From IMG/VR virus record IMGVR_UViG_2526164691_000020: a stretch of 9,492 nucleotides of DNA. One strand, 5' to 3'. The stretch comes from a virus. Taxonomy: Duplodnaviria > Heunggongvirae > Uroviricota > Caudoviricetes. The notes beneath the pieces were generated by a model, which worked only from the letters and a program-made list of their open reading frames with translations, was not told where the DNA came from and made no database searches. A program made the position numbers and the translations under genes. Below are positions 1,315-1,805 of the stretch, piece by piece (position 1 is the first letter of the stretch; every line of letters starts with the position of its first letter).

Positions 1315-1805
1315 AGGTGATTCTCCAGACGAAGACCCAGAACACCGGCAATCTCTTCCAGCACCTTGCGCTCTTCCGGCTCAATTTCGCCGTCTGCCTC
1401 CGCAATGGCCACCGCCACATCCAGCACATCTTCCGCTTCACGCGTATCGTGTTTCACATCCTCGATCTCACGTAACGCCGCACGACGACCAATTTTAAAG
1501 TTCGTATCCAGCTGACCGATAATGGTTGCGCTAATCGCATTAATTTCTGACGTAAACACGGACAGCGCAGGCTGATTACGCAGTACCTGTTCGATCTTCG
1601 CTTTCTAGGAAGCCTCACATTCACCATCTGCACAGGCCACCAGGTAGGCAGCATTAATAACCGCCTGTGCCAGATCGCGTTTCTCAAACTTTCCTTTTCC
1701 GGTTAACGTGACACACCAATAACTCTTGTCGAAAAAGCCAGCAAGCTGAAAGACCGGTATTCACAACCACCAGCGCGTTTACTGTACTGGCGTGATTTCA
1801 GTCAT
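1311..1805 (-). pseudogene. TerB-family (tellurite-resistance TerB-like) gene interrupted by three in-frame stop codons
   Basis: One frame runs from ATG (complement of 1803-1805) to TGA (complement of 1311-1313) with in-frame TAA (1779-1781), TGA (1761-1763) and TAG (1605-1607). Conceptual product ...GFFDKSYW...AAYLVACADGECEAS*KAKIEQ...VAIAEADGEIEPEERKVLEEIAGVLGL resembles TerB (MSFFDK... / ...SDG...E..K...EIA..LG). The track reports only the 82-aa tail (1311..1559). Confidence 0.6.

Follow-up and report, generated by a model that had tools for sequence, protein, structure and literature searches.

Probable dead copy of tciA, 5′-truncated and carrying an amber codon, in the late-operon leader of an Escherichia coli prophage

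The DNA analysed here (the window; 9,492 nucleotides, IMG/VR record IMGVR_UViG_2526164691_000020) is a segment of an E. coli lambdoid (Qin-like) prophage, and is 99.8% identical to strain DEC9B over its whole length. The minus-strand annotation of DEC9B runs in the order DUF968, RusA, antiterminator Q, a TerB pseudogene, DUF3927 and a SASA carbohydrate esterase; hokD, relBE, ydfV, flxA and IS remnants lie farther along. The carrier is a defective Qin-like lambdoid prophage of E. coli. Because the Q gene lies upstream, the tciA copy described below occupies a late-operon leader position. The features of the locus, in the direction of transcription, are as follows.

1929..2750, minus strand: antiterminator Q gene, upstream of tciA, with two 1-nt deletions relative to intact copies
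1878-1862, minus strand: second, weaker terminator
1813..1830, minus strand: intrinsic, tR′-like terminator (terminator scan), immediately 5′ of ATG1805 and aligning with the annotated terminators of SfV and Ayreon
1692..1812, minus strand: non-coding late-operon leader downstream of the terminator, holding a TAA, a TGA and the ATG at 1805-1803
1695-1698, minus strand: A4 run, which is A5 in DEC9B, 90-3040 and Xuzhou21
1690..1692, minus strand: joint between the late leader and tciA codon 18, an AAA microhomology in an A-rich stretch
1311..1691, minus strand: tciA remnant (TerB family), codons 18-143 and the stop, without ribosome-binding site, ATG and codons 1-17
1605..1607, minus strand: TAG in place of GAG, a nonsense mutation of Glu45, which is the conserved glutamate in the first ADGxxxxxE motif
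1183..1314, minus strand: tciB (DUF3927), whose GTG start overlaps the tciA stop (GTGA, 1314-1311)

ARAGORN found no tRNA genes in the window, and an Rfam search found no elements in 1200-1900. Elsewhere, three Rfam models matched at the gathering score: AgvB anti-GcvB sRNA (888-949, plus strand, 96.5 bits) and STnc100 sRNA (950-1139, minus strand, 131.3 bits), both in the interval from tciB to the esterase gene, and sok antitoxin RNA (8373-8544, minus strand, 99.3 bits) near the IS remnants.

The minus-strand frame from ATG1805 to TGA1311 spans 165 codons (495 nt) and translates as MTEITPVQ*TRWWL*IPVFQLAGFFDKSYWCVTLTGKGKFEKRDL...ECEAS*KAKIEQ...LENHL*. It contains TAA (1781-1779), TGA (1763-1761) and TAG (1607-1605) and no other internal stops. 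These are exactly the codons and positions given in a preliminary description of the locus, which had read them as three independent nonsense changes in a TerB-like gene that had otherwise kept its frame.

The TerB-like identity was borne out. The conceptual translation matches Pfam TerB (PF05099) with 44.2 bits against a cutoff of 24.4 (E=2.8e-11), while intact TciA of phage Evi scores 60.2 bits. By domain score the locus belongs to the family; as a complete translatable ORF it does not qualify, since the start and codons 1-17 are absent and codon 45 is amber. Intact tciA genes (432 nt, 143 aa) are present in phages Evi and JLK-2012 and in strains RM9872 and 86-24, and in these four the encoded N-terminus reads MFGIF(G/K)KKxRRAAxEIKKFEKRDLAQ. 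Residues 18-144 of Evi TciA align to window positions 1691-1311 at 97.6% identity (tblastn), with concordant DNA and protein alignments, and the remnant shares 96-98% amino-acid identity with Evi, JLK-2012 and RM9872 TciA over residues 18-143. Of 5,426 complete E. coli genomes, 642 carry the native tciA 5′ end. Intact tciA copies are under strong purifying selection, with pN/pS values of 0.01-0.07. One option of the preliminary description, a true pseudogene, was likewise upheld: intact orthologs with GAG exist, the disruptions are derived, and PGAP calls the equivalent of 1311-1673 in DEC9B and 90-3040 a ‘tellurite resistance TerB family protein, pseudo, internal stop’.

The part of the frame upstream of the remnant has a different origin. 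Window positions 1692-1834, comprising the terminator and about 110 nt of leader, match another module at 80-92% in phages 1720a-02, SfV and Ayreon and in strain 00_3230. In all four the leader is unannotated and ends at a Shine-Dalgarno sequence and ATG opening a small ORF, which is followed by a DNA methylase gene. The leader in the window also retains a remnant Shine-Dalgarno sequence of another phage’s first late ORF. The leader by itself matches well over a thousand E. coli genomes, where it carries no annotation. For its conserved part (1692-1770, minus strand), RNAalifold predicts a long hairpin with no pairs showing compensatory change, and the single-sequence z-score is −1.32.

Both the TAA and the TGA lie within this leader, and both are invariant in six of six aligned leader sequences, including those of distinct phages in which the leader is non-coding. 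Over 1692-1805 (114 nt) each of the three frames holds one or two stops. Base composition leads us to expect 2.1 stops per 38 codons, with a probability of 0.65 of at least two (20,000 shuffles). The TAA and TGA are chance stops in an untranslated leader and were never part of a coding sequence. This removes two of the three supposed nonsense changes, as the same leader is non-coding in 1720a-02, SfV and Ayreon. The argument for three independent nonsense changes in about 500 nt of coding sequence, with no indel, is not supported.

The same observations bear on the idea that ATG1805 opens a new fusion ORF, with an N-terminus derived from the leader and a TerB domain, which later decayed through three nonsense hits. 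A continuous frame from ATG1805 to TGA1311 does exist, albeit in the window alone. However, ATG1805 is the first triplet past the T-run of the terminator, and no ribosome-binding site for it was seen by eye. Neither SfV nor Ayreon conserves this ATG, whereas the two leader stops are invariant, and stops occur at chance density in all frames of the leader. Moreover, the frame relation between leader and tciA is absent from every other junction-bearing genome. We regard the chance that such a fusion ORF ever existed as next to negligible.

The boundary between the two modules could be placed to within a few nucleotides. In a BLAST search with a query spanning the joint, leader-only matches stop at query position 45 and tciA-only matches start at position 43, corresponding to window positions 1690-1692. 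Alignment gave the same boundary, with homology to the 1720a-02, SfV and Ayreon leader stopping and homology to Evi and JLK-2012 tciA starting at 1690-1692. The joint is carried by 477-478 of the 5,426 complete E. coli genomes. Judged by these breakpoints, a microhomology joint fused the late leader to tciA codon 18, with loss of the ribosome-binding site, the ATG and 17 codons. It may have originated by internal deletion or by module exchange. A search for an undeleted ancestor, with the leader, the small ORF, the methylase gene, the tRNA genes and tciA together on one contig, led to strain 00_3230, which carries the first four and has just a short DUF3927 in place of a full tciA-tciB pair, tciA being absent. 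A 77-codon ORF with a TTG start (1454-1687, minus strand) overlaps the tciA remnant in the +1 frame; its start follows directly on the leftover Shine-Dalgarno-like sequence GGAAAAGGAAAG, and it is probably spurious.

It had also been proposed that the real start lies after the first two stops. This is correct insofar as tciA homology begins there; the start itself has been deleted, and the intact genes begin 17 codons farther up, on sequence that the window lacks.

The continuity of the long frame depends on the A4 run close to the joint. With the A5 of the relatives, the frame leading into tciA reads ...GVSR*PEKGKFEKRDL, so that ATG1805 is out of frame and a TAA lies five codons before the joint. 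ATG1805 is in frame with tciA in the window because of a private 1-nt deletion (A5 to A4, indel position 1694). Across the 5,426 complete E. coli genomes, the window’s 76-nt joint sequence finds no full-length match better than 98.7%, which amounts to one gap, and none of the 477 other junction-bearing complete genomes matches the window junction exactly over its full length. The continuous ATG1805-TGA1311 frame is therefore private to the window sequence. The A4 run may be a true mutation or may stem from a sequencing error in the homopolymer. The description of the frame as free of frameshifts and indels was thus misleading: the gene lost its 5′ end at the joint, and ATG1805 is in frame through a private deletion. 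Indels are also present in the lineage, as a 1-nt leader deletion in the window and as an A6-to-A7 change in full-length TAG copies.

Comparison of the window with DEC9B revealed 20 differences, 14 of which are single-base indels. At positions 1106, 1694, 1806, 1843, 2702 and 2961 the state of the window is private, and DEC9B, 90-3040 and Xuzhou21 agree with one another. Among these differences, the window has T8 where the relatives have T7 downstream of the terminator, and one additional A at 1843. Single-base indels also cause frameshifts in Q (2702, plus a deletion near 2000 that is common to DEC9B), in rusA (2961) and in the DUF968 gene (3501). Such a distribution points to errors made in sequencing or assembling the source, or partly to genuine decay.

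An indel-prone sequence of this kind, with a private state at each of the six positions checked, lends some plausibility to the proposal that the three stops themselves are sequencing or assembly errors, or edits, and that the gene is really intact. However, 529 genome records that were assembled independently carry the identical TAG, and the TAA and TGA are invariant among the six leader sequences, distinct phages included. Even with all three stops repaired, tciA would still have neither its start nor its first 17 codons. We therefore hold an intact gene hidden by errors to be exceedingly unlikely. Sequence error, which the preliminary description had offered as one explanation, is plausible for the A4/A5 indel only, that is, for the 1-nt deletion that creates the long frame, and it fails for the TAG.

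Alignment to intact homologs, a check suggested in the preliminary description, identified GAG as the ancestral codon at the TAG and placed the TAA and TGA outside tciA homology. Codon 45 is GAG, encoding Glu, in Evi, JLK-2012, RM9872 and 86-24, and Glu occupies this position in four of four aligned intact homologs, including a Salmonella jumbo-phage protein at 77% identity. Set against these homologs, the TAG at 1607-1605 stands out as the only genuine nonsense mutation among the three stops.

In 529 E. coli genome records, the exact TAG-centred 57-mer is the best match; most of these are STEC, mainly strains of the O157, O121, O145, O111 and O26 types, and the median count is 3 places in each genome. 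The GAG version of the same 57-mer is found exactly in 57 E. coli genome records. Presence of the TAG 57-mer in 529 genome records implies that the TAG is inherited and is not a sequencing error. A chimeric query combining the joint with GAG gave no exact matches (best, 99.3%). TAG copies that retain the native 5′ region, downstream of tRNA genes, are found in PS1Thumoskin9, 97-3250 and 19KM2326N, and the TAG is thus at least as old as the truncation. All three of these copies also carry the A6-to-A7 frameshift, at codons 7-8. Altogether, a second lesion, either the 5′ truncation or the A7 frameshift, was present in seven of the seven TAG copies examined, and the intact copies all have GAG. 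Full-length tciA copies with both TAG and A7 lie at 1394-1825 in locus L012 and at 1216-1647 in both L015 and L016, and for these PGAP notes ‘internal stop’ only.

These data also speak to whether the locus could encode a TerB-like protein that is shorter yet functional, with translation beginning at a non-canonical codon past the first two stops and the TAG suppressed or read through, or with the gene working in two pieces. The TAG allele is very common in this sequence background (529 versus 57 records), and the base after the TAG is A, a context in which termination is comparatively weak in E. coli. The TerB model still matches the remnant, and pN/pS among the TAG copies, at 0.19-0.32, is below 1. 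However, these values come from 2-5 changes of each kind; the pattern fits a recent inactivation of tciA, and the test is weak. The frequency of the TAG can be explained by over-sampled STEC clones, each with several recombining prophages.

The sequence itself offers such a protein little opportunity to be made. From TGA1763 to the TAG, the only in-frame ATG, GTG or TTG is a GTG 11 codons before the TAG. All intact homologs conserve the N-terminal 17 residues that are deleted here, a TAA five codons before the joint closes the upstream frame in 477 other genomes, and the full-length TAG copies carry a frameshift as well. No stop is conserved in functional homologs, and no recoding signal or suppressor tRNA was found nearby: the window has no suppressor tRNA, and the related loci contain only Met/Ile-, Arg- and Lys-type tRNAs. 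After the TAG, an open GTG-initiated ORF of 82 codons (1559-1311) spans the C-terminal half in the tciA frame and is the only sizeable one there; no AGGAG-like ribosome-binding site was seen by eye 5′ of it. Taken together, a functional shortened or two-piece protein is very unlikely.

The reading that we prefer is that the locus is, very probably, a dead copy of tciA, 5′-truncated and amber-bearing, in a late-operon leader. Nothing found here speaks against a pseudogene. The main lesion is structural, a 5′ truncation with fusion to the leader. The ancestor would have been a full-length tciA gene of 143 aa, translationally coupled to tciB. As a first step, a GAG-to-TAG nonsense mutation would have arisen at the conserved Glu45. 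In a second step, illegitimate recombination or deletion at the A-rich microhomology in a TAG-bearing copy would have joined the leader to codon 18 and removed the ribosome-binding site, the start codon and the first 17 codons. Another sub-lineage would have acquired the A7 frameshift after the TAG instead of the 5′ truncation and fusion. Only in the window sequence does a private 1-nt deletion align ATG1805 with the tciA frame. We infer the order of TAG first and truncation second as the most economical one from the distribution of alleles; the genomes sampled are clonally biased, and exchange between prophages by recombination could obscure this order. TciA protein would not be expected from this locus, and late transcription probably still runs across the remnant when Q allows readthrough of the terminator.

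In its sequence background the TAG exceeds the sense allele by about 9:1, and it is present in several prophages of each STEC genome; loss of the phage TerB paralog might have been selected for. Were this the case, loss would have been favoured, for example, through interference with the host ter island or through toxicity. We consider such selection unlikely; clonal sampling combined with prophage-to-prophage recombination is the more likely source of the excess.

Decay extends to the neighbouring gene. tciB matches Pfam DUF3927 with 45.6 bits against a cutoff of 25, and a TGG-to-TAG change at 1183-1185 (W44 to stop) shortens its product to 43 aa instead of 55, with 11 more sense codons beyond the stop. 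This TAG is common to the window, DEC9B and 90-3040, and the codon is TGG in Evi, RM9872 and Xuzhou21. The tciA-tciB module is decaying as a whole. RefSeq treats the 43-aa tciB product as an intact protein (WP_001344632.1).

Four related loci (L012, L014, L015 and L016) share the gene order Q, tRNA-Ile/Arg/Arg, tciA, tciB and a nanS-p-like SASA esterase. In these prophages tciAB is flanked by the post-Q tRNA genes on one side and by the esterase gene on the other, a slot that stxAB occupies in Stx phages. By this analogy of position, tciAB looks like an alternative cargo gene pair at the stxAB slot.

That the locus is a pseudogene is ordinary and already known, as RefSeq records it with an internal stop. 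What is new here is the 5′ truncation at a defined joint and the assignment of two of the three stops to leader sequence. The PGAP label ‘internal stop’ understates the damage to tciA, as its 5′ end is gone too. The biological weight of a decayed accessory gene in a defective prophage is small. The lesson is one of annotation: an ATG beside a terminator can anchor an artefactual long frame when a non-coding leader is fused to a truncated gene, and one private homopolymer indel can make such a fused frame look continuous.

The same locus, with the same joint and the same TAG, is present as the RefSeq pseudogenes KIM47_RS10685 (DEC9B), C6W76_RS12100 (90-3040) and CDCO157_RS29145 (Xuzhou21), from which the window differs by its A4, its T8 and the extra A at 1843. 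The PGAP entries record the internal stop only and omit the 5′ truncation. The gene pair is annotated tciA/tciB in phage JLK-2012; the names and the presumed roles follow PMC9603915, in which function (tellurite or colicin resistance, or cell division) is assigned by homology only. As in the tciA-tciB pairs of lambdoid and P1-type phages, a DUF3927 gene lies downstream with a GTGA start/stop overlap, and the locus sits downstream of Q and upstream of a SASA/NanS-p esterase gene. Unlike intact tciA-tciB, the window has no tciA ribosome-binding site, ATG or first 17 codons, carries the amber codon at Glu45, has a shortened tciB and contains no tciC. With TerB of the terZABCDE operons for tellurite resistance and phage inhibition, the remnant shares the domain family and two ADGxxxxxE(E) motifs; it differs from ter-operon TerB in that it is a phage paralog outside any ter operon, forms a pair with a small membrane protein (DUF3927) and is predicted to be non-functional here.
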